This document shows positions 15,731-64,000 of a DNA stretch of 64,000 nucleotides, piece after piece; within the stretch, counting starts at the first letter, position 1; the number at the start of each line of letters is the position of its first letter. The notes beneath the pieces are model-generated. The model saw nothing but the letters and a program-made list of their open reading frames with translations. It was not told the DNA's origin and did no database searches. The stretch is from Raillietiella orientalis (taxonomy: Eukaryota): NCBI GenBank assembly GCA_036172245.1, contig JAYWIR010000026.1, positions 558,001 to 622,000 of the forward strand, read 5' to 3'. Both the position numbers and the translations under genes were made by a program.

Positions 15731-15744
15731 TCGACCGCATTATG

Positions 15745-18824: not shown

Positions 18825-19370
18825 CACCTGGGCTCGCCAGTCGCCGTCGGATTCGCGCCGCCTGTTGGAATGTCAACGGGCTGCGCGACGACGGTAACAG
18901 GCGAGATACAGCCGACACCCTGCGGGAGTTCGACCTGGCCCTGTTGCAGGAGATCCACGTGATCACCTCGGCAGACGTCCAGGAGATCGAGACGATCGCG
19001 GGGGGTCGGCTGTATTGGCGATGCGGCATCCGCAACACCTGCGGGGTCGCGTTCTTCGTGAAGCCCGCCATCGACGCTGCCGTGAAGGGCGTGCGCTTCG
19101 ATGACGACGGTCGGGTCGGTCAGCTGACTCTCGGCTGGTCCGACTCGATCGATCTGATCGTCACGAATGTGTACGCCCCAACCGGTCAAAAGGGATACAG
19201 CGACCGTACTAGGCTGCTTGAATCCCTGAAGCGCGATTGGCTGGCGGACACGAATGTGCAAAAGGCTCACCTGATAGCGGGAGATTTCAATCGAGTGCGG
19301 ACGTGTTTTTCTTCGCTCTCGTCTCCGTGCTCTCATCCGCTTCATCTTGGCGTCGTACATTTTCACGACG

Positions 19371-26000: not shown

Positions 26001-28573
26001 GGAGTGTTCGGAGCCTGAAGCTCCGTATGAACGTGCGGAGAAGTTCCGCCGCGTCCGGGAGCTTCAGCCTGTCCCCTGGGAGACGACACGCTGACGAGGG
26101 CGGGCCCCTGTCGCGCGGATGGATCTCGAGGACTAGCGGGCGATGGTCGGACAGCTCGCACGGTAAATTGCCGCGCCTGCCCACGCGAGGGCACAGGTGC
26201 TCGTCAACAAACACGTGGTCAATGCTGTCTTCCATCCCCGGTGCACTGGCCAACAAATTCCAGGTGTGCACCGCCATGCACACCTCGTTGACCAGGTCAC
26301 GCTCGGGTTTCTGCCCATCTGGTTTCAGGCGAACGTTGAAATCGCCTGCAACCAGATGGGCATTCCGCACGCCTGCTTCGGTCATCCGGTCTCGCCGGAG
26401 GGCAAGGAAAAACTCTTTCCTCGCCCTCCTGTTCATCAGGTCCTTGCCGCTCGGTGCGTACACGTTCGTGACGATCAGATCGATCGAGTCGGACCACCTG
26501 AGAGTCAGCTGGCCGACACGACCGTGATCGTCGAACCGTACGCCCCGAACCGCGGCCACGACGCCTGGCCGAAGCAGGTAGGCGACACCACAACTTTTCG
26601 CTCTCCCACACGTTTACCATAGCCGCCCTCCGGAGATCCGTTCGATCACTTGTGCTTGTTCTGCAGAGATCACGTGGATCTCCTGCAGCAGCGCAAGGTC
26701 GTAGGACTCGAGAAGGGCGGCCATGTCTCGTCTCCTGCCGGCGTCTGTCATGCCGTTCACGTTTCAAACGGCGATGCGCAGACGACGGCGGGAGGAGATT
26801 CCCGGCATTACTGCTAGGAAGATTAAGGTGTGGGGGAGCCCTCCTCTTGCGAGAAGGGCGGGATGTCCATGGGGGTTTCGGCCTTCTCAGGCACCCGAGG
26901 CACCTGTTCGGCCTCCATCCCCTCCATCCCCTCCGTGTCCGTGCTAAGGAGTCTCTCGGGCGACGGGTCCCGAGAGTTTCCCACGCTCATGGCACCCTCG
27001 CTTGCGGAAGCCATCTCTTCCCCTTCGACGGGGGAGACGAGCTTCCTTGGCTTTGTGGACTTACGTCCAGCCTTCTTCCGCGGTGCCGTGGAAACCGAGG
27101 CTGCGCTTCAGCCCTCCACCTCGGGGTCGGAAGTGGGGGACTCCTGAGGGGAGGCCGGACGCCTTACGGCCTTCTTGCCAGCCTTGGAGGGTTCTGGCTG
27201 CAACGAAGCTGCCAGCTCCTCCGCGGCTCGCGCGAAGGCTACGTCATCGATGGTGGTGTCGATGACGGACGCCGCCGCCGGCTCGCTCCCCTCGCTGTTG
27301 ACAGTGTCAACAGAGGGGAGGTCGTCGGTAGCGGCGAGTTCTTTCCGGCAGCGTTCAGCAACATCGAGAACGCGTTCGACAACGACGCTGCACATTTTAA
27401 TTATCGCGCTACCCTTCTCTTTCTTCTTCTGTTGGTAGGCGATTTTCTTTTCCATCCTCCTCTCCTTTCATTTTTTGGCCGTTGCCACTTGCCACCCAGT
27501 CTCCTGACCGGCTCCCTCAACTTTTTCGGCGTTGGTCGCCGGGGTCTCGCGTGCGGCCTGGGTCTTGGGCGCGGGTGGCACAGCCTTCGCGGCAGCTTTC
27601 GCCGCCAGCCTTTTCTGCAGAAGCCGGGCGCGTTTTTTAAGGTTTCTCTTGGAAACCACCCGCACTGCTGCTTTTAGGCACACCTCCTTCGTGTGGCCCA
27701 TTGTGCCGCATACTTGGCACTGCACATTGGGACACCTCTTTCTGAGGTGGCCCGACGTATTGCAGAAGCCACAGTATTTCGGCTTCCCCACATACCAGAG
27801 GTCGACGGTTTCGCCTTTGACCACCAGTTTGTGGGGAAGAGTGCAGCCCTCCCGAACGGTCACGCGCGCAGCAGTGAGGCCGTGTTGCAGCCCCGTGTAG
27901 TCCTCGAAAGGACTTACTTTCGTCCACTGCGCGTGGACCGTTCCGCACTGTTCCAAAGCGGCGCGAACCTGTTCTTTGCGCATTCGCGCCGTGACGCCTA
28001 ACAGGTGGACCACCATGCTGCGGTCCGCCGTAGTGAGGAGGAGCCTGCGCGTCCCCATCACAACGGGGTTTTAAGCAGTCGTTGGGCCAGCTCAGCATGT
28101 TTGCAGATGACCTCAACGTACTGAACCCCGCTGCGGATGGTCATAGCGCTGAGCTCCTCCTCTTTCACATCGAGAGCGCGCATGCCCTTCGAGAAGGCGC
28201 GCGCGCTCTCTAAAGAATATAAATTGCCTACCTTGTAGAATAATGAGGGGTTGTACCCCTTCTCTACATAGGCCGACAATTCCGCCGCGGCTGCAGGCGA
28301 TGGCGCCGACACAACGGCGCTCCACGCCCGCGCTGCAGCGGGGACCGATTCTGTGGGGGCGGATACCCCACCTCCATCGCCTCTGAGGACGACGTTGCCG
28401 CCGCTTCCTGGCTCTCCATCGCCTCTGGGGGCGGCGTTGCCGCTGCCCCCTGGCCATCCCTGGTGGTCGCGTCAGGCATGGCTGCCTGATAGACCACCGA
28501 ACCACACGACGCTTGCACTGGGGGAGACTTCCTGGCACGAGGAGCAACGAGTAAACGCGTCCGCCCTAGAGCG
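23010..28573 (-). mobile_element. Element E: full-length (5.56 kb) LINE inserted antisense into D's RT
   Basis: Perfect 14-bp TSD CACAAGGCGTTCGA at 22996-23009 and 28574-28587. ORF1 28479-26808 and ORF2 26808-23227 are both disrupted; YADY replaces YADD. Confidence 0.95.
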
Positions 28574-37023: not shown

Positions 37024-37272
37024 AGGACGTCTCCAGCGGAACGTGATTCCTTCCCCAACCCCTCCCTGCTTTTGTAAATAGTGTTTTCTTTTTGCTTTTT
37101 TCTATTTGTCCCTTCCCCCTCCGCTGCCGAGTCGACCTTGGGAGCCTGCGTGCTGCCCACTCGGCGAGTTCAGAAGAACATGTTCTGAACACTGTAGGGG
37201 CGATAGCCCTACACTTGCTTGTTTATTTTTTTTTATTAAAGAAATAAACGCCCCGGCGCACCCGGGTGTGAA

Positions 37273-39540: not shown

Positions 39541-39544
39541 TTGG

Positions 39545-39565
39545 CGAGCGGACGTGTTTTTCCTG
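39545..39565 (+). promoter_or_regulatory. Conserved 5'-terminal motif CG..GACGTG-T-tract (candidate internal promoter); representative copy
   Basis: GACGTG at 15757, 17139, 19300, 31786, 39551, 45930, 63743 (+) and 59414 (-); GACGCG at 28561 (-). Confidence 0.6.
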
Positions 39566-39636
39566 AGCTCCCGAGCGCGTCGACAGGAAGCGGTTTTTTC
39601 TTTGTGTGTGTTCGTGTGGAACATCGTTGGTGTCCG

Positions 39637-44300: not shown

Positions 44301-44964
44301 GCCAAAGTGGCAAGTCTCCTGCCGAATCGCAGGCAAGGAAAAGAAGATGAGCGGTTGGACCATGGGAGAACTGGCAGATGCCACAACCCCGAGTGCCCTC
44401 CCGCGTAGACTTCGTAGATGGGGCGAGCTGCTCGGCATCCCGACGGATGACCTGAAGTGGCCCCCAATATTAATCGGATCCAGGCTTCTCCCCCTTAAGT
44501 GGCAAGAGTCGGCGCTGCAACTGTTGCACTGGGGTCTACCCTGCAACGCGCGCCGCTTCCACTGGACGCGGGGAAGTGTAAGGCCTGAGTGTGCCAGGTG
44601 TGGGGAGCGGGAATTGCTCCCCCACTTACTTGTTGACTGTGCTGCCCTCCGACCCCTCTGGGAACGGTTCGGGACGACCTTCGGTCTCCCAATGGGCAGC
44701 GCGCCCAGAGACGTTCTTCGGCTCCTCTTCGTGCGGGACGCCTTGCAGCCCGTCGCAGCCCTCGCAGCCCTCTGCTGCATCCGGGGCAACGTGGCGGCCT
44801 GGAGCGACATTCGCGACGAAGGAGTGGATGCCAACGCGAGGGATGTCATCCCGTATGCGGTCTGCTTCATGATGAGAGCTGCGAGATGGCCCCATCTGGG
44901 AAGCATGAAGATGGACCTGGAGGGCATCCTGCGAAGGATGGGCCCTCCTCCCAGTGGATTGTGA
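41391..44964 (+). pseudogene. I ORF2 (TGA at 42855; small deletion-frameshift near 43270)
   Basis: EN, RT and CARCGERELLPHLLVDC motifs; ACA in place of ATG. Confidence 0.9.
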
Positions 44965-45181
44965 TCCCTTCCCCTCCCTCCCAACTCTTTTTGTTTTTCT
45001 TTTCATATCTTTATTTTTCTTTTTGTTTTCATCCCTATCCCCCTCCACTGCCGAGGAGCGTCACGCCGGGCTGCATCCCGGCGTCCCGGCAGGTCCGGTG
45101 TTGTGTGGCCGTTAGTGGGGCCTCGTACCACGTTTATGCAGAGTTTTTTCAATAAACGCCCCGGGCGTACCCGGATGACAA

Positions 45182-45918
45182 CCCCAAATCCCGCAGGTAG
45201 GCGATGCAGGGGGAACTGGTCGCAGAACTCCTGGACCGACCGCTTGAAGCGGTCCCAGTCCTGAAGTGTCTGCATCCTGAAGCTCCGAATAAACGCGCGC
45301 AGGTGTTCCGACCCGTCGGGAAACTTCAGCCAGTCCCTTGGCAGACACCACGCTGACGAGGGGTGGCCCTTGTCGCGCGGACGCACTTCGAACATGATCC
45401 GACCATGGTCCGACAGCTCGGATGGTACCTCGCCGCGCCTGCCCACCCGAGAGCATAGGTGCTGATCAAGGTACACGTGTTCGATGCTCCGTTCCATGTC
45501 CGTATCTCCGGCCAGCAAGTTGCACGTGTGCATTTGCGCGTACAACTCGCTGACGCGGTCGTTCAGTGTATCCAGCGCACCTGAAAGCAGGCGCAGGTTG
45601 AAGTCACCTGCGATCAGGTGCGCTTTGCGAACTCCTGCATCAGTCAGCCAATCGCGTCTCAGGGCAAGGTAGAACTCCCTTCTTGCCTTCGCCCTCAACG
45701 CGGCGTTTCCGCTAGGAGCGTATAGGTTGGTGACGACCAGGTCGATAGAGTCGGACCAGCTGAGAGTCAGCTGACCGACGCGACCTGCGTCATCGAACCG
45801 AACGTCCTTTATTGCGGTCTCGATGGCTGGCCGAAGCAGGAAGGCGACACCGCTTGATTTCGAGGTGCCGCAACGCCACAACAGCCGCCCACCCGAGATC
45901 CGTTCCATCTCTTGCGCT
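45182..45918 (-). pseudogene. F ORF2, endonuclease piece
   Basis: ERISGG...GVAFLL, LYAP, GDFN, SDH...LHRLPAGFG. Confidence 0.88.
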
Positions 45919-47415
45919 CGTACAGTGCAGACGTGTTTCCGCGTCTATCCGCGCCAACGATAGGGCAACCTTGTGCCTGCGTTGTTGCTCGCACTTGTGT
46001 GTTCCTGTGCAATCTGCCAAGTAGCATAGTGCAACATGGCCAGTACACAGGATAGTGTGGAGGAGCAAGCCACTGGATGCACTTCAGCTGCACTTGAAGT
46101 GGCCGCATCCTCCGTAATGGTTTCTTCGCCCCCGATGCGGAGTTACGCCGCCGTTACCTCCCAAAGACCAGGACCCTGCGATGCGGAGTTCCAGGCATAT
46201 GTGTCATCAGGATACATGCCTGCACTCCGTTATAAGGTCAGTGGACCCCTCAACGGGAGAATCGGTCGTGATCTCAATGATGAGCTCGTCCGTATCGGCG
46301 TTCGCGAGGAGGAACTCCTTGCCATAATGCCTGCTGGCAGGATGGAATATACAAAGATTCGGTGCAAGAACGCAGCACTTGTGCAGCGCCTTCTCCGTAC
46401 GCCGTTAACCATCATTGGCAAGGAAGTCCTACCTACCGCGATGGACGACTCTTTTGTCGTTCAATATTGCGACATCGAACCGGAAATCTCCGACCGCGAT
46501 GTCGTAAGTGTGCTGGCGAAGTTCGCCACCGTGCACGCTCTGTGGAGGAGGCCAAATCCTCTTAAGGATTTCCCCTCTGTCCACATTGGACAAGCCTCCG
46601 CGCGGATCACCGTCGCGAACAGGCGTGTTGTTCCTGAGTAGCTGCAGGTGAACGGCACGGTCGTTCACCTGTGGTTCATAGGCCAGACTCGCGCGTGCGA
46701 GCAGTGCGGCAAGGAGGCGCACCGAATTAAAGAGTGCCCCTCTCCAAGATGCCGCTATTGCAAAGATTCCTGGCACGAAATCAAAAAGTGCCCGGTCCTT
46801 GCAAGAAAAAGAGCCGCAGCGGAAATTCGTCGGGTTCAAGAGACCACTGCACGAAAAGCAGCAGCGGCAAATAAAAAACGTCGTCCGCAAACACTCGAAA
46901 AAAACCACGAGCGATCGGCGGATAAAAAGAAAGCATCCCCGCCCGCAACGCCCCGAAAGGGAAAAGTCACGGCGGGGAAGCCAATTAAAAAGGGGCGCGA
47001 GGGTTTGACGCGTGCCGTGCCTTCCCTCTCTGCCGAACTCGCAGGCACCTTTCCGAGCCTGGTACCAGGAAATCTCCGTAACACCCTGGAGGGAAAGGTA
47101 GCAAAACAGGAAGATCGCAACAGTGCGAAGACTTCTTGCCCCGTTCCGTTGTCCCTTCCGAGTTCCGGACAGCCCCACTGCAGCGCAGGCCCCACTGCAA
47201 AGGCTACGAAAGCCGTAAAAAGCAGCGTCGCAACGAGCAAAAGCACGCTGCATGCAGTCGCCCCATTGCCGTCTCGGCAGGTTTCCCCAAGTCCCACAAG
47301 GGGTGGGGTAAGTTTATTTTTCTATAAAAATACAAAATTTACATTCGCACTCTCATTCACTCAATACAATTATTTTGCACTTGGGGGTCCTTGGGTTGCA
47401 CTAGAGTTCTGCTTT

Positions 47416-50400
47416 TCAGGGGGGAATTCCAGCTGGATGGTCCCGGGCGTCGTCCTGGATCCTCTTCAGGATGAATCGGTACGTCCAGCCGTGGATCTTC
47501 CCGCAGTTCCTGATGCCGATTTCCCTCTTCAAGAGCCCTTGTAGGATCTCCATCGGTGGTGCGGCTCTTCTGGCTTTCCTCATTTTCCATCACCGCACAA
47601 GTATGGCGGTGATGAAGAGGGCTATGGTCGTCCTCACCATGGGATTGTAACAGGGAACATTACCATCCCCATGAAACATCCCGGCGAGGATCTCCATAAC
47701 GGACTTGTTGGTAAGTCCTATGATCCTTTTCAGGATCAGCCAGTCATGCAGGAGTGTGGGACCCGTCAAGACGTGAAGTCTCGTGTCGTCGTCTCCACAT
47801 GCTGCGCAGTCTCGGTCTTCCCGTCTTCCTGTAAAGTGCTGCAATCGGGACCCACTCTGGATTCCTCCGTGATAAAACATCAGGAGGTCATCCTGGGTGC
47901 CCGGCGGAAGGTCACTCCTCCAGAGCGTCGTGCCGATCGCTAACAAATTGAACTGTTCACTCCCGTAGCGTTCGGTGGCTTCCTGGAGGGCACTGGTGTC
48001 ACGGTCGTTTTCTTGGATAAGCCTTTGGAGGTTTGTTCTGGTTACCCTCGACCATGCGAAGTCGTTGTGGTTGAACCACACTTCGCGGGTCCTGTGTGTA
48101 AACCTTCCTAACATCATCTCTGTATACCGAAGTATACGTGTTTGATGTAGGTAGCCTCCTCGCCTCCACTCCTGGATTTGCAGTAGGGTAACTCTGGACC
48201 GCTGGTAGATCCAGCTTCTCGTGTCCGGCGTGACAGGAAGCAACCAAGGGATCACCAGGATGGACTCGTCCTGCCAGAGTTCCCTGCTTCGCGGCACGAT
48301 CTTGATTTGGTGCTTCCGCACCAGCCGTTGCTTCCTCCTCCAGGTCGGGTCGATTGTTATCCATTCCCCTACTTTGCCTAGCAGCGCAGTCATCACGCCT
48401 TTCGAGTTGTTAAGCAACAACGCGTAGGCCCTGTGCGCCGCATACGGCCAGTCATCCCAGTGAGTGGAAATGTCCAGGATGTGTCGCGTATCCATGATTT
48501 CCATGGAATGTGCAAGCGACTTCATCCCGGAACCGCCTTCTTCCCTGGGACGACACAGGGGTTTCAGTCTTACTCTTGGACGATAGTGGCCCCAGAGTGT
48601 TTTTCTTTGCAGCTTGTCGAACTCCCTAGTAGTGTCCTTGTTCATCCTCGCGAAGGCCGCCCCGAAGAGCACTTTCGGAAGGAGTAATCCGTTCCATATG
48701 TTGGCCTTTCGCTTCATCCCAAGGTCCGTTCGGGTGTACTTGGCTGCTTCCTTGGCCGTTTTCCCCAGGATTTCTTTCCACAGCAGCTTCGACGCAGAGC
48801 CGTCGCCGATGTAGACTCCCAGGTACTTGGCCGTGTCCACCGTACGGAATCCACTACCCGTTAGAGTGGAGAGATCCAGGATTCCGACGGGCAAAAGCTG
48901 GCTCTTCTGGGAATTGATTTTTAAGCCCAAGCCCTGTTCCATCTGGTCCACCACATCCAGAAACGCACGCTGATTTTTCTCTCCCTTGATGAAGAAGAGT
49001 AGATCATCGGCGTATGCCAGATGAGTAAGACGCTGGCTATCGATGGTAATCCCGCTTAGTCGTCCGCTCTTCTCGATAAAGGACGACAACGCCTCCATAT
49101 AGATGACGAACAGCATCGGACTTAGCGAATCGCCCTACCGGACTCCCCGTTCCATCCGGATTGCTGCCGTCTCCTGGCCGTTGATCTTGATCCGGCAGTA
49201 CTGGTTCTGGAGTACCACCCTCACGAAGTTGCTGAAGTGTTCCGGAAGCCCTAGCTTCTCCAGAACCTTCAGCAGCATCCCATGGTCGATGGAGTCGAAG
49301 GCCTTCTCCATGTCAGTGAACACCAGCACCAGGTTCTCGCCGACGTATCGACTGAGTCCAACAGTGGCCTGGGCACACTTGACATTGTCCGACATGTGTC
49401 GTCCCGGGACTGCACATGTCTGGACCGGAGAGATCAGCCTCGACATGACCTTGCCTAAGCGGTTGGACCAGATCTTCGCCAACCACTTGGCATCGGAGTT
49501 TAGAATCGAGATTGGCCTCAATTGGGCGATCTGGGTAGAGTCGCCTCCTTTCGGCAGCAATCTCATCCGACTCTCGTAGAAGGACTGAGGTAGTCTGCCT
49601 TCTTCCCGGATGCAGAGGTTCAACTGGTGGAACAAGCGCAGGTAGGCGTGCAGGTACCGCTGATAGTGCGTGATGGGTACACTGTCAGGGCCCGCTGCCA
49701 CGTCCTTGCGAAGTTGCCCAAACGCAGTCTTCACCTCATCTCCGGAGAACTCCTCCTCCAGTCTGTTTTGCTGAAGATCGTCGGTCCTCTTCTCGAGATA
49801 GCTCAAGAAGGCCTGTTGACTAGAGCGACACAGCTGCTGTCGCCTGAAGTGTTTCGTGTAATGCCTGTGAAAGGCATCCACGATGTCCTCAGACGACTGT
49901 CGCTTTTGGCCGTCGTACTGGATGCAGAAGATATCTGTTGCCAGATTTCTATTCTCCAGCACGCCGACTTCCCCTTTTATGTTATTGAGGACGTACCGTC
50001 TCTCGTACTGATCGAAGTACTTTGAGAGGGAGCGATCTTGGATGTTCAGCTCCCGGTACGCCTCTTGCCTCAAGCGCCTATCCCCGAACTGCATGTTCGC
50101 AAACAGGTGTATCCTGTGTTTCAGGCTGTCCCAGTCGGCGACTCTTCGGATTGTTGTTGCCTTCAGAATCTTCTCCAGGACAGCCTGATGTCCGGGATGG
50201 GTTTCGAACCAGGCGGGCATGCTGATGAGCGCCGCCCTGGTGCCTTGCCTCCGCCGAGGATTCTCCGTTCTTAGGGAAAACCGCACCAGGGGGTGATCGG
50301 ACACCGTAGTCATAGTGTCGCGAAACCCCTGGATGCGGTTCCCAAGGTCGGTGCTGTGCAGGACGTGATCGATTGGCTTGTGGCTTGCTGTTCGCCAGAC

Positions 50401-50934
50401 CAGTCCGAACTCCTCGGATAGCCGTCGATACGCCGTCCTTCCTCTGGCGTCTTCCGAATGAATGATCTCATCCAAAATGTTGAGATCGCCAGCAACAATG
50501 ACGACGTCCTTGGAAGCAACCTTTTCACGGAGTGCTGCATGCAGCGCCTCCGCACAACGATGTTTTAGCCTGTGCGGTCCGTACACGTTCACCAGGATGA
50601 GGTGAACAGTAGCGGACCAGGCGAGTCGCACGCCGATGATTCGTCCGGGTTGGGGACAGAACACTTCCAGAATAGTGGGGGCCAAGTTGTTCTTGATTAG
50701 GACCGCCACTCCCTGCGTGTTCCGTTCTCCCTCGCTGACGAAAATCTGCCCGTTGAATCGCCGTTTCATTTGCTGGCTAATCTCGAGACCCATCTTGTGG
50801 GTCTCCTGCAGGCACACTATGTCTTGTTGTGCGATGGTCCGCACAATCCTTCTTCTTTTTCCCTGGTCGACCATCCCGTTTACATTCCAGGAGGCGATGT
50901 TCAGCCTCCTGGCGGTCGATAGGGAAGAGGCCAT
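47416..50934 (-). pseudogene. J ORF2 (EN, RT, decayed Cys/His motif; stops at 49135 and 47590)
   Basis: SWNVNG, LQETH, VYGP, GDLN, SDH, DMEKAFD, GVR*GDSLSP, YADD, KYLG, CAACGDDDTRLH. Confidence 0.9.
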
Positions 50935-51035
50935 AAAAGGGGAAGACCTATTTCTTGGCCTTCCTGAGCTTCTTCTGTCTGAGAGAGCGTGCTCTTCCAG
51001 ACAATGAAGAAGCAGCGGGCTTCTCGCTGCCGGCG

Positions 51036-52760
51036 TCACTCTGTTCCGGTGAGGTCGGTTACTTCCGCCTCCTCCGTCGAGTGTTCGGCCCGCTCGATCA
51101 ATTTTCGAGATAGAGCCTCTATCTCGACCTTGGCGCAGAAGTTCGTTTTCACGTCGAGAAGCTGTTCCTCTAACTTCTCGCGTTCAGCGACCTCCACCAC
51201 CTGGTTGATGTTCTCTTGTGCAGTGCAGATCTTCTGCAAGATTTTCTCTTGCTGAGGACCGCTCTGCACCTCCAGGATCTCCTCCGCCAGTGTTGCCAAC
51301 TCCTCCGTAGTCTGCAGAGCCTCCTGCGACACTTTAGTGGCTTCCTGTCTCTCTTCCTTCGCGCCTTCCTGCGCTACCTCCATCTTCTCGCCTTCCTGCT
51401 CTGCTGTTTCCAGGATTTGAGGAGTTCCTTGCTCCTTGACGAGCATCCTCCTCTTTCCCTTCTTTCCCACTTCTATGAAGCCGTCCGCCGACACCGGGAC
51501 GGCTTCTTTCACTTTTTTTCTGCCTTCCTGCCTTCTGAGGCTGTTCGGCCTCCTTGATGTTTCTCTCTCTCACGGGAGAGAGACCTCGAATCCTTCTGCA
51601 GTTTTCAAACTCCGGACAGCTCCATTTCGCATGTCCGTGTTTCTTGCAGAAGGAGCACACCTCCGGATGCGGGCAGTTTCGGACTTGATGTCCTACTTTG
51701 CCGCAGCGGAAACAACGACACGTTGGGCAAGAGCCGGCCCTGTGACCGAACTGCTTGAACCCGGTGCAGAATACCGGTTGTTGCCGGTAACGCACATTCA
51801 CTCCCTGGGATTGTTCGTCAATAACGGCCAATCCAGGGATCACCGCTCCCTCCCTCAACTTCATCTTGGGATCATGTCGCCAGAAAATATGTTTCCAGAG
51901 AAGTTCTGGAATTCAAGGTCCAGAACTTCCCCAAACTGCTCCAAGGAATTCCACACCGCTAGTTGCGGTGTGAGGATGGAGATGCCGTTTAAAAAGACGG
52001 TTGTGTATGGCATCTCGCCAATACCACAAACCATCCGTTCTTGTATATTGATCCCCTTCTGGATCAATCGCTCTCTAATGTTTTCACAGTCTGTAAAGAC
52101 TGTGAACCCGTTGTTTGATGGAATGATCGCCTGAATGCGATCAAAGTCTATGTCCGTCTTGTCGAGGGACAAATAGACCTCCCTGATGTTATTAAATTTT
52201 ATTAGCCCCGTCTTGAAGATAATGGGCTTCACGTTGGGGCCTAGTTCGACTATTGGTCGGTCCACTTTTAGTACTTTTCCGCTAAGCGGCTTACCGAATT
52301 TCCTAGGTGGGTGGACACTCGCCTGTCCAGCCGCCACCGACGCATAAGAAAAAGGCTGCGACGCCGCAGCCGAACAAGATGGCGTCGCTCCCTGCACCGC
52401 GTGGACGCCCGCGGGTCCCGCCTGGGACGCCACCGCCGCGGGCGCAAACCTCGACGTTGCCGCCGTTACCGCCGCGGGCGGCACCCTCGGCATTGCCGCC
52501 GCAGGCGCGACCTTCCCCGCCGCGGGCACGATCCTCGGCGTCGCCGCCGCGGGCACGACCTCCGCCGTCGTCGCCGCGGGCACGACCTCCGCCGTCGTCG
52601 CCGCGGGCACGACCCTTGGCATCGCCGCCGCCGGCGCAGCAAAGCCCGCCGCGGGCGCGATCCTCGGCATGCCTGCCACCGCCTCGCCGTTGCCGCACGT
52701 TACCTCCATGGCTTCCATGGGGGACGACGGTCTCTCCACTCTTCTTCTAGGTGCCTGCAT
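51036..52760 (-). pseudogene. J ORF1 (Ala/Pro repeats, RRM-like region, 3 CCHC-type knuckles; stop and frameshift)
   Basis: CTGFKQFGHRAGSC, CFRCGKVGHQVRNC, CSFCKKHGHAKWSC. Confidence 0.85.
52425..52670. repeat. GC-rich ~27-bp tandem repeats in J ORF1 (VVPAATTAE-like)
   Basis: GCCGCGGGCACGACCTCCGCCGTCGTC occurs twice exactly, with degenerate flanking units. Confidence 0.85.
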
Positions 52761-53606
52761 CCTGGCAGCTGGTCTTGCTGCACGGGACCACTGCAGGTCT
52801 TTTGCCGCGATCTCCTCGCCGCTTCTTTTTTTTTTTTGTTTCTTCTGGAAAACTTCCCCTCTCCGGGCACACACGAGCACAATTAACTAATAAAGTTGTC
52901 AAGCGCACAATACTTTGAGCCGCGGAGCAAGTTCACCGACTCGGCAGGAGAGGAGCAATCTCCCGACTGTCAAGAAGGTGACTCCGTTGCCGCCTTTTAA
53001 AGGCGTAGCGAAAGCAACGCCCCCAGAGAACGCAGCGAAAATCCCGGAGGTTTCCGCAACTACTGTCGCGGAAGCTTCCGAAAATCGCGAAGGCGAATGG
53101 AAGGTTGTGGAGAGGAGGAAAGAAAAATCTCCAAAGAAAGCTCCGCAACCTCCATCCCTGAGCTCTTCCAAAGGAAAAAGCAGTCGCGCGAATACAAAAA
53201 CACGCGCGGCTTGTGACTCTTCCAAGGAAAAAGCCAACGCCTTCAACGCGTGCAAGTCCGCTTCTGTGACCGCCGAGAAGACCATTCCGGTGCAATCGGA
53301 CGGATGCAAGCGCACGTCGATCGTGCGAGCATCAGACTTCGCAAAGGAGTCCGATAACGCAGCTGAACGACGCGTAACTCGCGCGGGAGCGAGCGCCCGC
53401 AGGGCTGAAGCCCTGAGGCGTGACACACTCGCCGCGGAACGGCGAGTGCTCACCCCGGAACCCACAGGTTCTGCACACGGGGAGGAGCACCCGATTACGT
53501 GCAGCACAGTTGAGGCCGGTGGCGACCGCGCCCTCCAGCCCGTCGTGCTGCTTACTGCCCGCTCGCCGGGTGAGGCGAGCACCACGGCCTCGCTTTCCCA
53601 GCCGTG

Positions 53607-56600
53607 ATGAGGGCACTCGCGTCTTCTCGTCGTGTTGCCGTAACGTCTTGGAACGTCAACGGGCTCCAACACGAGGAGAAGAGGCGACTAGTGGCTGACG
53701 CTCTGCGCGCCTTCGACTTGACGCTCCTGCAGGAGATTCACAGCATCTCCGGAGAGCAGGCTGCCGAAATCGAACGGCGCGCGGGCGGAACGCTACTTTA
53801 TAGGTGCGGCGTTGCACATACGTGCGGCGTCACTTTCCTCGTGCGAGGAACTTTGGCGGGAGCGGTGCGCAGCGTTCGTTTCGACACGGAAGGCCGAGTG
53901 GGACAGCTTGTACTGAAGTGGTCCGACTCGATCGACCTTGTCGTAACCAACGTGTACGCGCCGAGCGGTGCTGGACGATGGGCCGAAAGGATTGAGTTCT
54001 TCGGTACCCTTCAAGGCCAGTGGCTCACTCGATCTCACCCTACTGTGGCCCATCTCATTGCGGGGGACTTTAACGTCCACCTGCTTTCCGAGAATAGATC
54101 CCACAAAAGGGAAAAGTTGCTAGCGGAATAGATGTGCGTGTCCTTGCACGCGTGCAACTTGTTCGCTAGCGACCCTGTTATGGCAGCAACGCCGGACCAC
54201 GTATACCTTGATGAACACTTGCTCTGTCGAGTAAGTCGGAGAGGTCCCGTGCCGTCCGTGCTTTCAGACCACAACAGGCTCGAGTTCGATTTGCTTTCGC
54301 CAGGCAAGGGGCCTCCAAACTGTTTTTGGAGGATGCCGGCAGACTGTCTAAGCCACCCGGAGACGGCTGAGCATCTTCGCCAGTACCTCTTTGGCTTTGC
54401 CATAAGTGAGCTCGAGGACTGGGACGATCTGAAAAGATCGGTCCGCGAGTTCTGCTGCCGGTTTCCCTTGCACCAGCTTCCGCGCGGCTTCGGAGAGGGC
54501 GTAGCCAACAGCAGAGATTTCCTGCAGGCCCGCTCCTTTTCCAGGCGCGCGGACGTTGGTCGATTATCCGAGTACAAGGCCAAGGCCGAGCGCCAGGTCT
54601 GGCAGTCAGGGGCGACAGTTCTTCTCGACGACCAGGACCGGGAATGCTCGGCTCCAGCCGACGTGCGACGGATAGTCAGGCGCTATTACTCTTCTCTTTA
54701 TGCAGAGGCACCGACGGAACGCAGCCTCTCCCGGCTGCTTCTGCCGATTGATGCACCTGTTGTAGACGAGGAGGAACGCGCGCGTCTTGATGAGCCCTTC
54801 ACGGCAGAGGAAATTTCCTCGGCCATCTCGGGGCTCAAGAGACGAAAAGCGCCAGGCAAAGATGGGCTTCTTGCGGAATTCTTTCAGTGTTTTGCGGCGG
54901 ATCTCATCCCCTTGGTGCTCCAACTCTCGTCGCTGATGCGAGAATCGGGCGATTTCACGCCTCGTTTTGCTCAGCGAAGGTGCGTCTACTGCCGAAAGGC
55001 GGAGATTTGCGCCAACTGAGCAACTGGCGTTCGATCACATTAGTGAATTCGGACGTCAAGTTGTTCTCGAAACTTTCGGTGGCGCGGATGGGTAGGATCG
55101 CGGAATCCTTGGTAAGACTGGAGCAGACGTACGCTTTTCCTGGACGGTCCATAAACGCGAATCTCTGGTTTATCCGCCCATGGCTGCAATTGCAGCATCG
55201 TGTGGCGGTGGATCCTCGTGCGGAAGCAACGCGTTCGATCTCTCACCGACGGAGGCGCAGGACGCAAAGGGAGACACCGGGAGCCTTAGCGGCTGCAGCC
55301 GATCTGCACAAAGCTTTCGATTGCGTGAACCAAAAGCTTCTTCTTGAGCTTTTGGAACGTCTGGGTCTTCCGGCATCCCTGTTGGCGTACTTGCGCTCCT
55401 GCTGGCGTTACGCGATTACATCCATTGTTTTCAGTGGCTGTCGCGTGTACGGCGTGCCGGTACGACAAGGAATTAGGCAGGGTGACAGCTTAAGCCCGCT
55501 GCTCTTCAGCATCTATTTTGAATTGGTGCTGGAGGCTTACAGGCTGACGCTAGCCAACCTGCCGAGCTCCTGTCCAGGTACGCCGGCCGTTGCAGCCTAT
55601 GCCGACGACCTGCTTCTCCTGTTGCCCATGTCCATTCCGACAGCGTCGCTTGAAGATTTCTTTGAGTTGATCCGTCGCGGTGCGGGCGTGAGCGTTAACA
55701 GGAGTAAGTGTATGGTTGTTCCGATGGGTGAGACGTGGGAGGGGCAGTCCGACTGGATCGATCTGGGGATCCCCACGGGCAGGTACCTAAGGTACCTTGG
55801 CGTGCCGTTCGGCGACTTCTGCATCTCAGAAGCGTGGTCGGACTGCCTTCGGAAGGCAGAGCGTGCACTTAGCCCGTTTTCAGGAGGCGAGTTCGTCTTG
55901 CCGGAACGGGCCTGCATCTGGAACACCTTCGTTGCCCCCCTCCTCCGCCCCCTGTTTTTTGTTTGTCCACCCCCCCAGGAAGTCAAAGTCTGGGCGCAGC
56001 GCCTTCTACGCAAAGCGTTGTGGGGCGCTGCAAGATCCCGTGTTAGACTTCAAGACTTGGTGGCGCCGCGTCAGGATGCAGGTTTGGGCATCCTCGACTT
56101 AAACAGCATCGAACTGCAGGTGCAGTTTCGCATGCTGCGGCTCTGTGCCAAGCTGTGGTGTACGCCGTGGTGCTTACCCGCACGCCTTATACTGAGGCGC
56201 TGCACGGGAAGCGAGGGACTGCTTTCGTTGCTACCCCACTTTCGGCACACCAGAATAGAGTTTGGCTTCCCGCTGAGGCAGCTGTCCTCACTGCTGGAAG
56301 CCCAAAGCTGGATCTCCTGCCGCCCCATGAACATTAATGCATAAGGACAGGAATCTTTTTCATCGTGGGCAGCTTCCGAAGGAACGCGCCCGGAAGATCT
56401 TCGACGCCTGCGACTTCTCCTCAGTCATCAAATGGACGAAGTCATGCAGGACAAGAAGTTGTCTGATCGTCTGGCCGTCACACCAATCGCCGCAGCGCTG
56501 TGTGCCCTCAGGGAAAGCAACGACGGTTGCCTACCGGCGGAATGGGAGCTCTCCTGCAGAATAGCGGTAGTCAGTAAGCTCCTCCGTAGCTGGACCACAA

Positions 56601-57176
56601 AGGAGCTGGTGCAAGCCGCCACACCTCGGAATCGGGCGAAGGGACTGCTTCGGTGGAGCGAACATTTAAGTGTGCCCCCCGGAGAGAGAGTTGGTTCCCT
56701 CTGTTTGTTTGACAGCTCCGTGTTCCCTTAAATGGAAACAAGATGTGCTCCTCTTTTACATTGTGCATTTCACTGTAATAGGCAGCGAAGATCGTTTCCG
56801 GGGGAGCTGCTTTTGGTTAAACTGTTTAAGGTGCGGAGAGATCGAGTCTTTTCCGCACCTTTTGTTGGACTGCGGTGACCTCCGGGAACTGTGGCGAAGG
56901 CTCACTTCGGCCATCATGCCACAAGGAGGCACTGCCAGTGATGTGCTGCGGCGCTTCTTCAGCAGAAATGGACTTTCGGTTGGCGCGATTGTCGCAACCA
57001 TGTGTTGCGTTCGCGCCATCGTGAAGGCCCGCTACGCCCTGGAGTTTTCATCGCAGCGAAGGGAGGCTCACCTGCTTGCAGCTCAATTCATGGAGAAGGC
57101 TTCAAGGTGGTCTCATCTTCGTGACAAGGTGAATGAGGACATCACCGGCATACATCGCCGGTTTACACACCTTTGA
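53607..57176 (+). pseudogene. G ORF2 (stops and frameshifts)
   Basis: EN and RT motifs, YADD, CLRCGEIESFPHLLLDC. Confidence 0.9.
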
Positions 57177-57501
57177 GAACGACGTAATCCGGTGACCCCT
57201 GCTACCTCTCGCCCACCCATACCCCGTCCCCGTTCGCTCGGTAAAATTTCCGGTGCCCATGCTTTTATCCCCGTGTCTTCCAGAGCGATCCCAAACACCC
57301 TTATCCCGTCCTCCTTATTCATTGTTTTTATTTTATTTTGGTTTCTTTGTGTTTCCCGCCCCTTCACACCGTTCACAAAACTGTTACTCTTGCCTGCGTG
57401 CCAGCAATATTCTCTTCATTCATGTTCAGTCGTCGGTTGGGAGTTTGGTTCCCAACTGGTTTATTTTGTATAATTGCTTTTTTTTTGGTTATGTTATATG
57501 G

Positions 57502-57531
57502 AATAAACGCCCCGGCGTGACCGGGTGAGAA
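57502..57531 (+). terminator. Conserved 3'-terminal AATAAA plus CCGG-N5/6-CCGG hairpin; representative copy
   Basis: Copies at 4826, 15700, 30747, 37243, 45151, 57502, 62392 (+) and 23040, 31149 (-). Confidence 0.75.
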
Positions 57532-57694
57532 ATCTCCCGGGCTTGATCTGCGGAGATCACGTGGATCTCCTGCAGCAGCACCAGGTCGAAGGATGCCAGG
57601 GTGGCGGCCACGTCACGCCTCTTGCCGTAGTCGCTTAGCCCGTTCACGTTCCAACAGGCGATCAGAAGACGACGGCGAGAGGCGATTACCGGCA

Positions 57695-59338
57695 TTATGG
57701 CTGGGAAAGTGGCGTCGCGGCACCTGCCGCGGGGCAGGTGTAGGGAAGGTCCATCGGTACGAGGACGGAGGTCTCTTCAGGCTCCTGGGGTACCTGTTCG
57801 GCCTCCATCCTCACCATCCCATACGTGTCCGAGCGTGGAATTCTCTCGGGCGACGGGTCCCGGGAGTTTCCCACGCTCATGGCACCCTCGCTACCGGAAG
57901 CCATCTCTTCCCCTTCGTCGGGGGAGACGATCTTCCGGGGCATTGTGGACTTTCGTCCTGCCTTTTTGCGGGGTGCCGCGGAGATGGATGCTGTGTTTCC
58001 GGCCTTCACCTCGGGGTCGGAAGTGGCCGACTCCTGAGGGGAAGCCGGACGCCTGACGGCCTTCTTGCCAGCCTTGGGGGCAACCGGCTGCAACGAGGCA
58101 GCCAGCTCCTCCGCGGCGCGCTCGAAGGCGACGTCATCGAGCGTGGGCTCGATGATGGACGCCGCCGCCTCGCTCCCCTCCTTGTTGACTTTGTCAACGG
58201 AGGGTTGAGCAGGGGCAGCAGCGAGTTCTTTAGCGCCGCATTCGTCGATGGCGGGAATCCGCTCTACAACGACGCAGCAGCTTTTAATTTTTTCGCGGCG
58301 CAGAGCGGTTTCGCTCCGTTTCCCCACGTTCTTTCCCTTCTTATGGGAGTTTTTCTTGGGGTCGACCTTCTGCCACCCTGGCTCTTGACCCTCGCCCTCG
58401 ACCTCTTCGGCGTTTTTCGACGGGGTCTCCGAACTGGCCTTCGCCTTGGTGGCGGAGGTGACCTCCTTAGCAGCAGCACGAGCTGCCAGCTTCTTTCTCC
58501 TTTCTGCCGCGCGCTTTCTCGCGTTTTTCGCGGACACGACGCGGACTGTGTTTTGGGGGCACACCAGACGGGTGTGCCCCGATTGTTTGCATTGCTGGCA
58601 CTGCACGCTCGGACACCTCATTTTAAGGTGACCAAAGCTGCTGCAGCAGCCGCAAAACTTGGGTTTCCCCACGTACCACACGTCAACGGATTCACCGTTG
58701 ACGGTGAGTTTGTGGGGAAACTCACATCCCTCGCGAACCGTCACTCGCGCTGCACCCAGGCCGCCAAGCACCCCGTCGTAATCGACAAAAGGAGTAGGCT
58801 TTCCCCACAGCGCGTGGACAGTTGCAAATTTTTCTAATTCGTTCCGGACGGCCTCCTTCGTCATCCGGAACGTGATACCGGTCAGGTGAATGATCACCGA
58901 CCGGTCTTCAGTAATGGAGAGAAGCCTCCGGCTGCCCATAATTACGGGGGTTCGCAGAAGTCTCTGCGCAAGAGTTGCCTCCTTGCAGATAACTTCCACA
59001 AATTGACCCCCGCTTCTGACGGACATAGCCAGAAGCTCCTCTTTCTGTACGCCGAGAACGCGCATCGCCTGTGAGAAGGCGCGCGCGTTCTCGGGAGAAT
59101 ATAAACCGCCTACCTTATATAGAAGGGGTGGGTTATACCCCTCCTCCAGGTAAGCGCGCATTTCCGCCATAGCCGCTGGCGTAGGTGCCGCAGCCACGGC
59201 ATTCCAAGCCCTGGGTAGGGCCGGGGGCGCATCCGTGCTGGCGGGAGCCTCCACTGATGCGGGAGCCCCCACCTCCATCTCCTCCGGGGGCAATGAGGTC
59301 ATCGCCCCCGGATCCTCACCGGTGGTGGTATCAGGCAT
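57695..59338 (-). CDS. F ORF1, open (547 aa)
   Basis: CGCCSSFGHLKMRC, CQQCKQSGHTRLVC; ends at TAATG 57697-57693. Confidence 0.87.
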   Translation of the reverse strand: MPDTTTGEDPGAMTSLPPEEMEVGAPASVEAPASTDAPPALPRAWNAVAAAPTPAAMAEMRAYLEEGYNPPLLYKVGGLYSPENARAFSQAMRVLGVQKEELLAMSVRSGGQFVEVICKEATLAQRLLRTPVIMGSRRLLSITEDRSVIIHLTGITFRMTKEAVRNELEKFATVHALWGKPTPFVDYDGVLGGLGAARVTVREGCEFPHKLTVNGESVDVWYVGKPKFCGCCSSFGHLKMRCPSVQCQQCKQSGHTRLVCPQNTVRVVSAKNARKRAAERRKKLAARAAAKEVTSATKAKASSETPSKNAEEVEGEGQEPGWQKVDPKKNSHKKGKNVGKRSETALRREKIKSCCVVVERIPAIDECGAKELAAAPAQPSVDKVNKEGSEAAASIIEPTLDDVAFERAAEELAASLQPVAPKAGKKAVRRPASPQESATSDPEVKAGNTASISAAPRKKAGRKSTMPRKIVSPDEGEEMASGSEGAMSVGNSRDPSPERIPRSDTYGMVRMEAEQVPQEPEETSVLVPMDLPYTCPAAGAATPLSQP

Positions 59339-59420
59339 TGCTGCCTAATCCTCCACCCACACCACACACAAGCACCAACGGAAACGAAACTCAGGAGCAA
59401 CGAAAAGACACGTCCGCTCG

Positions 59421-62215
59421 ACGCTCCGCAATCTCGATGATTGGGACCTTTTTAAGGCCTCGGTCCGCGAGTTTTGCGAGGAGTTCCCCTTGCACCTCCT
59501 GCCCCGGGGATTTGGGGAGGGGATCCGTAACGAACGAGAGTACTTGTATGCCCGTCGTTACGCGAGGACCCCCAATGTCCGTCGCCTGGCAGAGTACCGA
59601 GCCGGGGCCGAACGTCAAGCCTGGCAATCCGGATCGGCCAGCTTGCTGGACGACCAGGGCCGGGAGCACTCGGATCCGGCTAGAATACGGCACCTCGTGC
59701 GGCGTTATTATTCCTCCCTTTACGCCAGGGCGCCCCCGGACCAAGATGCCTCTCGGCGCTTGCTTCCGAACGGTGCCCCGGCAATAGGGGAGGAGGAGAA
59801 GGAAAGCCTCGACGAGCCTTTTACCACCGGCGAAATTCTCGCCGGTATCAAAAGGCTCAAGAGGCGGAAAGCACCAGGGGAGGACGGCCTGCCTGCGGAG
59901 TTTTTTCAATGCTTTGCGGCAGAGTTGGCACCCCTGGTGCTTGAGTTGACAAGGCTGATCCGAGATGAAGGCGATGTACCGGCCTCGGTTCGTTCAGCCA
60001 GAGTGAGGCTCCTTCCGAAAGGAGGAGACCTCAGGAAACTCAGCAACTGGCGTCCGATCACAATTGTGAACACGGACGACAAGTTGATCGCCGGACTGTG
60101 GGCTTCGCGTCTGGGGCAGGTGGCTCATTCCATAATTAGCCCGGAGCAGACTTACGCTGTTCCCGGGCGAAGTATGGAGGCCAACCTCTTCTTCGCGAGC
60201 ACATGGTTTCATGTGCAGAGTAGTGAAGAGAAGGAAGAGGGAAGGATTGGCAGCCTCGCTTTGGGGGCGTCAGCCGGGCAGGGACAGAACTTTCAGGTGG
60301 GGAAGGGAGCCCTAGCGATCGCAGTCGATCTGCATAAAGCGTTTGACTGCGTGGACCAGGATCTCCTGCTGGAGCTCCTAGGACGCATGGGCTTCCCTCC
60401 CTCCCTACTGACCTACCTGCGCCCTTGCTGGCGCGGCGCGCTAATCAATATCTCTTTCAGAGGTCAAATGGCGTACGGCGTGCCGGTACGGCGGGGCATA
60501 CGGCAGGGAGACAGCCTCAGTCCCCTGCTCTTTAGCACCTACTTTGAATTGGTGCTGAGAGCGTACAGGGTAACTTTGGCCCCCTTGCCGAGCTCGTGCC
60601 CCGACACGCCCACCGTAGCAGCGTACGCCGACGATCTTTTGCTGCTGTTGCCGATGTCCACCCCGGCGAACGCGGTCGGGGATTTCTTCGATGTGCTTAG
60701 CCGCGGGACCGGACTTACGGTGAACAGGGCGAAGTCGACGGTGGTTCCAGTCGGTGCGGCGTGGGCTGGGCAGCAGGACTGGGTCCGCTTGGGGATCCCC
60801 ACGGAGAGGTGCTTGAAGTACCTTCGTGTGCCGTTGGGGGACTACTCCCCTGCGGAAGCGTGGTCCAGCTGCCTCCAAAAAGTGGAAACAGCGATCGGCC
60901 CATTCCTGGAAGACAAGTTTCTCCTACCGGAACGGGCCGCGGTATGGAACGCGTTCGCGGCTCCTATCCTCCGCCCCCTGCTTTTTGTTTGCCCCGTCCC
61001 CAGAGAGTTGAAAAAACGGACGTAGGACCTCCTGAGAATTGTCCTTTGGGGAAGAGGGAGGCCCCGAGTCCCGTTGAAGGACTTGTGTGCTCCACGTCGG
61101 GATGGCGGTCTCTGCCTCTTGACGATGGAGGGAGTAGAGATTCAGCTGCGGTGGCGAACCCTCGCCATCGCAGCGAAGTTATGGAGCACCCCTTGGTGCG
61201 TTCCGTCCCGACTCCTTGCCAGCCGTGTATCCGGGACGGAGGTTCTCGCGTCCTATCTTCTCTGCCGTGGCAAGAAGATCAAGAGATGCGGACTTCTCCT
61301 GGGACGCATGGCAACTCTGGCTAAGGAAAACGGCTGGATGGTATGCAGCCGCGCCAACTCCTCCGCATGGCTGGAGACAGCTGGCACGTGGGCGAAGATA
61401 AACCAGAAGAACGGAGAGATGTGGAACTGCCTGCGACGCGGCGCCTATTCCCGCTGCACTCTGCGGAAGATACTCCAGTGTCCCGCGAGAAGCACGTGGG
61501 CAGAGACAACCCCCCTAGCTACGGCAATGCCCTTCCTGAGGAAAGCGCTTTCCAGCAGCCGCAAGCCTAGGTGGCAAGTCTCCTGCCGCATCGCAGGCAA
61601 GAAGTTGATCAGCGGCTGGTCCACGGGTGAACTGGCGGACGCCAGTACCCCTAGTGTCCAGCCGAGAGGACTTCAGAGATGGGGCGAGCTACTCGGCATC
61701 CAGCCGGATGACCTGAAGTGGCCCCCGGTATTAATTGGTTCTAGGATCCTCCCCCTGAAGTGGCAGATTCGGCGCTTCTGTTGTTGCATTGGGGTCTACC
61801 CTGCAACGCACGTTGCAACCACTGGACCAGGGGTCGAGGAGATCCTACCTGCATCAGGTGTGGGGAACGGGAAACCCTCCCCCACCTCCGTGTTGATTGT
61901 GCTGCCCTCCGACCCCTGTGGGAACGTCTTCGTGCCTCCCTACGGATCCAGGAGGGCAGCCAGCCCAGAGACGTTTTTCGGCTTCTGTTCGTGCATGATG
62001 CCCTGCGTCCAGCCGCTAACCTGGCTCCACTTTGCTGCGTACGCGGGATTGTGACGTGCTGGAGCAACGTCAGAAGACCGAGCCACAACAGGGATGCCGT
62101 CGTACTTGCAGTCCGCTACCTGCGGATTGTGACCAGATGGCCCCACCTGGGAATTATACGGACGGACCTCGAGGGCATCCTGCGAAGGATGGACCCTCCT
62201 CCCAGTGGTCAGTGA
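59421..62215 (+). pseudogene. C ORF2, 3' part (RT and CCHC; TAG at 61023, frameshift near 61765)
   Basis: KAPGEDG, DLHKAFD, RQGDSLSP, YADD, CIRCGERETLPHLRVDC. Confidence 0.9.
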
Positions 62216-62421
62216 TCCCTCCCCAACCCTCCCAAATCTTTTTGTTTTTATGTTTTATTTTTCTTTTTGTTTTTTCCCCCACCCCCTTCCGCTGCCGAGG
62301 AGAGTCGCGCCGGTCTGCGTACCGGCGACCCGGCAAGTCCAGTTGAGTTGGCCGTAGTGGGGCCTCGTACCACGAATCAAAGAGAATGTTTAATAAACGC
62401 CCCGGCGTGACCGGATGGCAA

Positions 62422-63731
62422 CTAGCAACTTGGCGTCCGCATTCACTATTGTTATTGGACTCCAGTTGTTCATGCTCCTCAGATCTCCTCCCTTAGGGAG
62501 GAGCCGCACCTTTGCCGAACGAAACGAGGCGGGAACGTCACCTGTTTCGCGTATCAGCAAGGTGAGTTGCTGTACCAGGGGGGTGAGCTCAGCCGCGAAA
62601 GTTTGATAAAACTCCGCGGGCAGGCCGACCTCCCCTGGAGCCTTTCGCCTCTTGAGCTTTCCGATGGCCGAGAGTATCTCGTCCATCGTGAAAGGCTCGT
62701 CGAGGGTCTTTCTCTGCTCCTCCCGGATCGCTGGAGCGCTTTCCGGAAGCAGGAGTCGTGAGACGTTCCTCTCCGGAGGTGCCCTGGTAAACAGGGAGGA
62801 GTAGTAACTCCGCAGCAGTCCGCGGATTTGGGCAGGTGCCGAGTGCTCCTGGCCCTGATCCTCCAGTAAGCTGCCCGATCCGGACTGCCAGGCTTGCCTC
62901 TCGGCTCCTGCTTTGTATTCCGCCAGCCTGCGGATGTCGGGGGTCCTGGCGTAACGGCGAGCCTGCAGGTAGGCTCGTTCGTTACGGACCCTGGTCCCAA
63001 AACACGTAGGTAGAAGGTGAAAAGGGAACTGGTCGCAGAACTCGTAAACGGACCTTTTGAAGCAGTCCCAATCCTGGAGTGTCTGCATCCTGAAGCTTTG
63101 TCTGAACGTGTGGAGATGTTCCGTAGCGTCCGGGAGCTTAAGCCAGTCCCCTGGGAGACGCCACGCTGACGAGGAGGGGCCCCTGCGGCGCGGATGGATC
63201 TCAAGGACTAGCGGGCGATGGTCAGACAGCTCGCACAGAAACTTGCCGCGCCTGCCTACGCAAGGGCACAGGTACTCGTCAAGAAACACGTGCTCAATGC
63301 TGTCTTCCATCAACGGTGCACTGGCCAACAAATTACAGGTGTGCACCGCCATGCACACTTCGTTGGCCAGGTCACGCTCGGGATTCTGCCCATCTGGTTT
63401 CAGGCGAACGTTGAAATCGCCTGCAACCAAATGGGCATTCCGCACGCCTGCTTCGGTCAGCCAGTCTCGGCGGAGGGCAAAGAAAAACTCTTTCCTTGCC
63501 CTCCTAGTCATCAGGTCCGCGCCGCTCGGTGCGTACACGTTCGTGACGATCAGATCGATCGAGTCGGACCACCTGAGAGTCAGCTGGCCGACACGACCGT
63601 GATCGTCGAACCACATGCCCCGAACCGCGGCGTCGACGGCTGGCAGAAGCAGGGAGGCGACACCGCAACTTTTCGCTCTCCCACACGTTTACCATAGCCG
63701 CCCTCCGGAGATCCGTTCGATCTCCCGCGCT
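62422..63731 (-). mobile_element. Element L: internal piece (EN to RT NADAKL), E-like; host of C (3' junction) and K
   Basis: ORF 62390..63616 closely resembles E ORF2; bounded by C's 3' end and K's 5' end. Confidence 0.88.
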
Positions 63732-64000
63732 CGTACAGTGCAGACGTGTTTCCGCGTCTTTCCGCGCCAACGATCGGGCAACTTTGTGCCTGCGTTTTTG
63801 CTCGCACTTGTGTGTTCCTGTGCAATCTGCCAAGTAGCATAGTGCAACATGGCCAGTACACAGGATAGTGTGGAGCAGCAAGCCACTGGATGCACTTCAG
63901 CTGCACTTGAAGTGGCCGCATCCTCCGTAATGGTTTCCTCGCCCCCGGTGAGGAGTTACGCCGTCGTTACCTCCCAAAGACCAGGACCCTGCGATGCGGA
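63732..64000 (+). mobile_element. Element K: 5' end of a G-subfamily LINE running off the window
   Basis: Nearly identical to 45919-46187; ORF1 ATG at 63849. Confidence 0.92.

Follow-up and report, generated by a model that had tools for sequence, protein, structure and literature searches.

Two probable separate insertions of one LINE subfamily at the same nucleotide of diverged sister elements in a retrotransposon nest of Raillietiella orientalis

Some long interspersed nuclear elements (LINEs) are target-specific, with known targets in rRNA genes, telomeres, small RNA genes and a single DNA transposon; for the self-nesting LINE clusters of green algae we know of no address that has been described. 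Tx1L of Xenopus has its one target sequence inside the DNA transposon Tx1D, and R1Bm of Bombyx uses one site of the 28S rDNA; both have specific apurinic/apyrimidinic (APE)-type endonucleases according to PMC1950540, where human L1 is described as nicking at several hundred thousand locations that loosely fit the consensus TTTT/AA. Zepp and ZeppL, as described in PMC8226300 and PMC3446292, build nested clusters by targeting existing copies; the available portions of PMC8226300, PMC3446292, PMC9940879 and a 2025 CENH3 preprint give no nucleotide-level, subfamily-specific address for Zepp-type clusters, and the original Zepp paper may bear on the point. Here we analyzed 64 kb of the genome of Raillietiella orientalis (GenBank assembly GCA_036172245.1, contig JAYWIR010000026.1, positions 558,001 to 622,000 of the forward strand; hereafter the window, numbered from its first letter), in which two closely similar LINE copies, G and K, interrupt two diverged relatives at the same nucleotide. 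Every count and census of copies is confined to this one window.

L1-like retrotransposons lacking long terminal repeats (non-LTR), with an APE endonuclease (EN) and a reverse transcriptase (RT), form a nest that begins at about 12.7 kb and extends to the end of the window. All other pieces were mapped onto element E (- strand, window 28587 to 22996), which served as coordinate reference. G and K lie on the + strand and their hosts, Hg and H, are read on the - strand; both inserts occupy the same homologous nucleotide, antisense to the EN codons A(R/Q)E(I/M)ERISGG. On the sequence evidence set out below, G and K would represent two separate insertions of one young subfamily into older, diverged sister elements, a reading to which we assign a probability of about 0.72.

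The 5' end of G reads CGCTCGTACAGTGCAGACGTG and its 3' end AATAAACGCCCCGGCGTGACCGGGTGAGAA, finishing in ...GGGTGAGAA at 57531. A 16-nt start, GTACAGTGCAGACGTG, is found exactly twice in the window, at 45920 (G) and 63733 (K). With the common CGCTC assigned to the inserts, these begin at 45915 and 63728, 4 nt to the left of 45919 and 63732, the positions given in a preliminary description of this DNA that had already pointed to the nearly identical 5' ends. The left junction of G reads ATCTCTTG followed by CGCTCGTACAG, that of K ATCTCCCG followed by CGCTCGTACAG. Translated alignment of the hosts (tblastn) gave AQEMERISGG... for Hg and ...AREIERISGG for H, reproducing the antisense placement at ARE(I/M)ERISGG codons that had been proposed for both inserts. 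The features of the G site and of its empty counterpart are the following.

45182..45914, - strand: piece of Hg on the downstream side of the site (E coordinates 1921-2668), with EN codons AQEMERISGG...
57532..59421, - strand: piece of Hg upstream of the site, with 5' untranslated region, first open reading frame (ORF1) and EN start, ending ...LLQEIHVISADQAREI
45907..45914: left copy of the G target-site duplication, ATCTCTTG
57532..57539: right copy of the G target-site duplication, ATCTCCCG, a 6/8 match to the left copy
26645..26652, - strand: empty homologous site in E, the + strand reading ATCACTTG and then TGCTTG, uninterrupted

To the right of the 3' end of G the host resumes with ATCTCCCG GGCTTGATCTGCGGAGATCACGTGG, which is the sequence following the site in E, and deletion of one 8-mer copy lets the Hg frame run on across G as ...ISADQAREMERISGG, including QAREMERIS. 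The site is empty in E, as the preliminary description had noted near 26645, and likewise in D, C', X_G, F and G itself (all elements are listed below). The relative F has a perfect 8/8 duplication at another site, which shows that the G/F lineage does produce 8-bp duplications.

Duplication of a block containing host and insert together would leave the two equally diverged. Instead, the hosts (45183-45914 vs. 62996-63727) are identical at 537 of 722 aligned bases (74.4%), with a further 20 gap columns, and the inserts (45915-46187 vs. 63728-64000) at 264 of 273 without a gap (96.7%; Fisher p = 6e-19 for the difference). Host identity in the last 30, 50, 100 and 200 bases before the junction is 83%, 75.5%, 76.8% and 77.8%; the value for the last 50 bases argues against a conversion tract leading to the junction. 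The step from 74% to 97% falls exactly at the element end, where homology to the empty site in E also ends. We reject a duplicated host-plus-insert block and favour independent insertion because of this identity step, the empty site in E, the 8-bp duplication at G and the continuous host frame. In the preliminary description it was likewise argued that the hosts differ clearly next to the junction and that the inserts arrived independently, and equal identity of host and insert close to the junction was named as the observation that would speak for duplication followed by conversion; host identity shows no such rise, and the distinct host contexts agree with that argument.

Conversion could still have acted on an older duplicate. 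In one version, an ancient block of host plus insert was duplicated and one host flank was later overwritten by E-type gene conversion that stopped at the insert. H is in fact of E-type, matching E at 659 of 732 positions (about 90%) in the junction stretch and at 87.5% over reference coordinates 1921-3241, whereas Hg matches E at 560 of 725 (about 77%), and a heterologous insert would halt a conversion tract at that point. This account nevertheless seems quite improbable. The conversion must postdate the split of G and K, which are 3.3% diverged, but the only visible E-type donor differs from H by 10-12%, and the tract would need at least 1.3 kb. Hg, moreover, is not a DNA-level duplicate: it is a complete retrotransposed copy with its own 13/14 duplication in C' and with D and X_G as guests, and the two hosts differ in other insertions and in breakpoints, their far-side breakpoints being at reference 3241 (H) and 2668 (Hg). 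In another version, to which we give the least credence of all, the duplicated block is old and the inserts alone were homogenised later, through conversion of G and K by each other or by further G-type copies. Clustered repeats can undergo concerted evolution, and K is comparable over 273 bases only. The identity step, located exactly where both the element and the homology to E at its empty site stop, speaks against homogenised inserts, as do the differing host contexts and the divergence of the host copies, too great (74% identity) for a recent common origin. Both versions require a tract ending exactly at the element end and further assumptions.

In a search of sequencing runs, one DNA run (X1) contained 0.37 of the words, and the matches listed include no RNA run. 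Contigs of X1 over 45100-47600 numbered 40, and eight of the nine pieces listed came from this run. Among the rows listed, an 864-nt X1 contig begins exactly at 45920 and carries the letter of K at 7 of the 9 differences between G and K, and one host contig fits up to 45909 and then continues with 33 unlike letters. None of the X1 pieces listed for this region bridges the 45914/45915 junction. The loose-end consensus at 47556 has no occurrence in the window.

If insertion sites were uniform, a given pair would share nucleotide and orientation in a 5.6-kb host with a chance of about 1 in 11,000. G, K and F have GA(G/A)AT^(C/G) in common at their presumed nick sites, and about 8-12 GARAT^S motifs occur per host of about 5.5 kb. 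An endonuclease needing only GARAT^S could have led two independent insertions to the same one of some ten sites per host by coincidence. All three elements do show this motif at the nick together with 8-bp duplications, and the F site differs from the G/K site, as would be expected of weak specificity. We consider such a coincidence unlikely, although less so than either form of conversion: the motif was derived post hoc from three events, the occupied sites have 17 nt in common and not 6, and the E-type subfamily independently reuses one site, which brings the joint chance near 0.01.

Several observations weigh against two targeted, separate insertions of G and K. With GARAT^S alone as guide, the chance of a shared site is about 0.1 per subfamily and about 0.01 for both. 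There are only two G-type copies in the window, and the 3' end and duplication of K lie outside it. D, which is empty, carries only the upstream half of the site, in near-perfect form (GGGAGATCGAACGGAT). The X_G and C' subfamilies, 79-87% alike, use different sites. At least one family fragment (4311-4860) lies in non-LINE DNA, so that LINE targeting is not absolute, and the comparison data are limited to the window itself. Finally, the G duplication is imperfect (6/8), whereas in the other five events the two copies agree at every position or at all but one. Assuming decay of no more than 3.3% in G, we calculate a chance of roughly 9% for at least two mismatches within 8 bases, and the mismatch remains a small blemish.

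Among nine elements examined at the G-type site (one with the site deleted), GAGAT.GAACGGATCTC is present in the two occupied ones only, and E, which is empty, has only the downstream half. The site in H is a 7-bp inverted repeat, GGAGATC GAACG GATCTCC. Inverted arms (GAGAT / ATCTC) around the nick are found only in the two occupied hosts. Near the address the host sense strand (57540-57600 and 63690-63727) carries two successive GGAGATC / GATCTCC inverted repeats, at codons QEIHVIS and EIERIS, and the G/K nick is located in the left arm of the second (EIERIS). Element A lacks about 21-24 bases (7-8 codons) at 13270-13300, exactly at the G-type address of its relatives, so that its subfamily is without this address. 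Element A (12677-13400) was considered as a third event at the same site and rejected, since on realignment it is continuous through the region apart from those bases.

The E-type subfamily provides a second case of repeated site use. The duplication flanking E, TCGAACGCCTTGTG, is a perfect 14 bp and is present once in the uninterrupted relative G, as the antisense of RT codons HKAFD. Two further E-type copies, B and B', are joined head to tail by exactly one 14-mer:

15731..15744: 14-mer TCGACCGCATTATG, preceded by the 3' end of B (about 13401-15730) and followed by the 5' end of B' (15745-17122), an 11/14 match to the E duplication

In R1 arrays, tandem copies arise from repeated use of a regenerated target, and the arrangement of B, 14-mer and B' would be the outcome of repeated insertion into such a target. 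Both G-type copies share one site, and E and the B/B' tandem pair share another; at least four other subfamilies are each represented by one event, all at different sites. Judged by their junctions, two subfamilies thus each appear to reuse one site, and the two sites differ. The proposal in the preliminary description that each subfamily has its own address holds up to that extent for the G-type and E-type subfamilies; for the remaining ones, single events are all the window contains.

A mechanism consistent with these observations is target-primed reverse transcription, in which the APE-type endonuclease would nick the host sense strand at GGGAGAT^(C/G)GAACGG, just past the LQEIH codons of the endonuclease catalytic motif; a second nick would lie at a distance of 8 bp. 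As each host offers roughly ten GARAT^S motifs, selection of this one would call for further recognition. The address may be encoded by the ORF2 protein through wider contacts with the DNA. Alternatively, a read-through transcript carrying the flank of the parent may pair with the nicked target, as has been described for R1 elements, and by this route an address would be heritable within a subfamily without protein change. A more far-reaching possibility, which we regard as doubtful, is that the L1-like subfamilies form a guild with heritable, nucleotide-precise addresses in one another's ORF2. These would be reciprocal, G-type elements aiming at EN codons of E-like elements and E-type elements at the RT codons HKAFD of G-like elements, with each subfamily differing in its own sequence at its own address; mutual inactivation would follow, along with a self-building LINE island like the centromeric ones of some green algae.

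The assignment of the family to L1-like LINEs is based on protein domains and on the nearest structures. Both strands carry frames with Exo_endo_phos and RVT_1 domains (Pfam) and CCHC knuckles. The longest intact ORF2 (33424-36546, 1041 aa) has an N-terminal APE-type endonuclease followed by the RT, the ORF2 architecture of an L1-like non-LTR element (Pfam; Exo_endo_phos 1.2e-14, RVT_1 2.2e-22), and several other copies also match. Its nearest solved structure is human L1 ORF2p (PDB; E 1e-48), with R2 at 2e-16. A protein search with this ORF2 found one 619-aa fragment with 74% identity, located on a 2.9-kb contig; the remaining matches have at most 29% identity (query cover at least 30%), and one 31% match covers 19% only. 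The EN is the less conserved domain across subfamilies (51-60% identity to D vs. 60-72% for linker plus RT). Base composition of the whole window is 57% G+C.

The copies also resemble one another at their ends. A 5' motif, ..G(G/C/A)(G/A)GACGTGTTT.., is common to all. Eight of nine 3' ends consist of AATAAACGCCCCGG, a variable stretch of 4-7 nt, CCGG(G/A)TG and 4-5 bases ending in AA, directly followed by the flank; the ninth, that of Hg, is a diverged version ending in CAATG. Across subfamilies the 3' ends keep AATAAACGCC(C/T)CGG, the variable stretch and CCGG(G/A)TG plus a few bases (e.g. 57502-57531, 45151-45181 and 23010-23040). AATAAA, a short GC-rich inverted repeat and AA are present at the 3' ends, and the nine examined have neither a poly(A) nor a simple-repeat tail, the usual mark of L1-like elements. 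A 3' hairpin with a 5-pair stem showed no compensatory change in nine copies (RNAalifold) and thus has no covariation support. A metagenome scan with the conserved 3' end motif yielded two loci, both without BLAST match to the window, which were discarded as chance matches. Both hallmarks of target-primed reverse transcription are present, namely target-site duplications and 5' truncation; the truncated copies are B, A and the fragment at 4311-4860.

Alignment to uninterrupted relatives placed at least ten LINE-into-LINE insertions between 12.7 and 64 kb, a nested cluster as in Zepp and ZeppL. Its main components are the following.

17123-62421, + strand: C', orientation mixed, split by the Hg nest
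19292-30776: F (G-like), in C' at GDFN codons, sense, duplication ATTTCAAT, 8/8
31118-59421, - strand: Hg, in C', antisense, duplication 13/14
23010-28573, - strand: E (E-type), in RT codons HKAFD of F, antisense, duplication 14/14 at 22996-23009 and 28574-28587
31781-37272: D, in Hg, antisense, duplication 12/12
39541-45181: X_G, in Hg, antisense, 11-bp duplication CCCCAAATCCC
45915-57531, + strand: G (G-type), in Hg, antisense, duplication 6/8
62422-63727, - strand: H (E-type host), right of C', its other end adjoining the C' 3' end; K follows
from 63728, + strand: K (G-type), first 273 bases in the window (63728-64000)

Seven insertions are antisense to their host and two are sense (F into C', B into A), with C' ambiguous; the antisense bias (7 vs. 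2) is not significant alone. The duplications match at 8/8 positions for F, 11/11 for X_G, 12/12 for D, 14/14 for E, 13/14 for Hg and 6/8 for G, and their length tracks lineage: 8 bp in G and F, 14 bp in E and the E-like Hg, 11 bp in X_G and 12 bp in D. A separate 5'-truncated element, X_K, at 59421-62421 was considered and rejected; this segment proved to be the 3' portion of C', separated from the remainder by the Hg nest and its 14-bp duplication.

Three junctions involve E-type pieces and C'. H breaks off at reference coordinate 3241, where it meets the C' 3' end (window 62413-62430); the E-type copy B starts at reference 3247 in opposite orientation, 49 kb to the left of H (window 13394-13411); and the 5' end of C' adjoins B' at reference coordinate 1400 (window 17114-17132). 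Inversion, twin priming, template switching and insertion plus deletion were tried, and no model fits all three junctions. A breakpoint pair within 6 nt, as for H and B, is expected about 0.4 times by chance given some 20 breakpoints. The reading of H as host of K is left untouched by this rearrangement. The A/B junction (13399-13408) has an 8-9-nt microhomology, TGGGCAGAG, which fits both A and the 5'-truncated B and looks like the trace of a microhomology-mediated 5' join.

Pfam EN and RT matches of G itself lie at 53574-56341. Its ORF1 contains element N, nested antisense at about 47590-52900 (- strand), a much more distant LINE with 31-39% amino acid identity to D in EN and RT, CCHC knuckles, 27-54-nt tandem repeats at 52432-52635 and no DNA match elsewhere in the window. 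Window positions 1-12600 are free of LINE similarity except for a 550-bp 3' fragment of an X-like LINE at 4311-4860, and the left edge of the LINE island seems to lie within the window.

If these elements do aim at fixed codons in the EN and RT genes of their sisters, this would explain how LINE islands build themselves while sparing host genes, and it would amount to direct interference between competing retrotransposon lineages. For programmable insertion the interest would lie in a natural series of closely related APE-type endonucleases, or of RNA-guided homing tails, whose long targets differ.

In comparison with known systems, the elements share with human L1 two ORFs, an APE endonuclease and RT, target-site duplications and 5' truncation with junction microhomology (here at A/B), but unlike human L1, none of the eight presumed nick sites is T-rich. 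With Tx1L and R1Bm, as these are described, they would share the entry of an APE-type LINE into one defined sequence, which for Tx1L also lies inside another transposon. The targets here differ in being codons of sister LINE subfamilies, EN for the G-type and RT for the E-type, entered mostly in antisense; a further difference is that different sister subfamilies appear to hold different addresses, with 2-3 copies per subfamily and putative specific nicking. Like Zepp and ZeppL of green algae, which are compared here by description, they form GC-rich clusters of mutually nested L1-type LINEs, the solved structure closest to their ORF2 being that of L1 ORF2p; by description, Zepp arrays consist chiefly of tandem 3' ends with 5' truncation, while full-length copies predominate here. 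The behaviour of G and K would be that of a target-specific LINE of the Tx1L/R1 kind combined with that of a self-nesting LINE of the Zepp kind.

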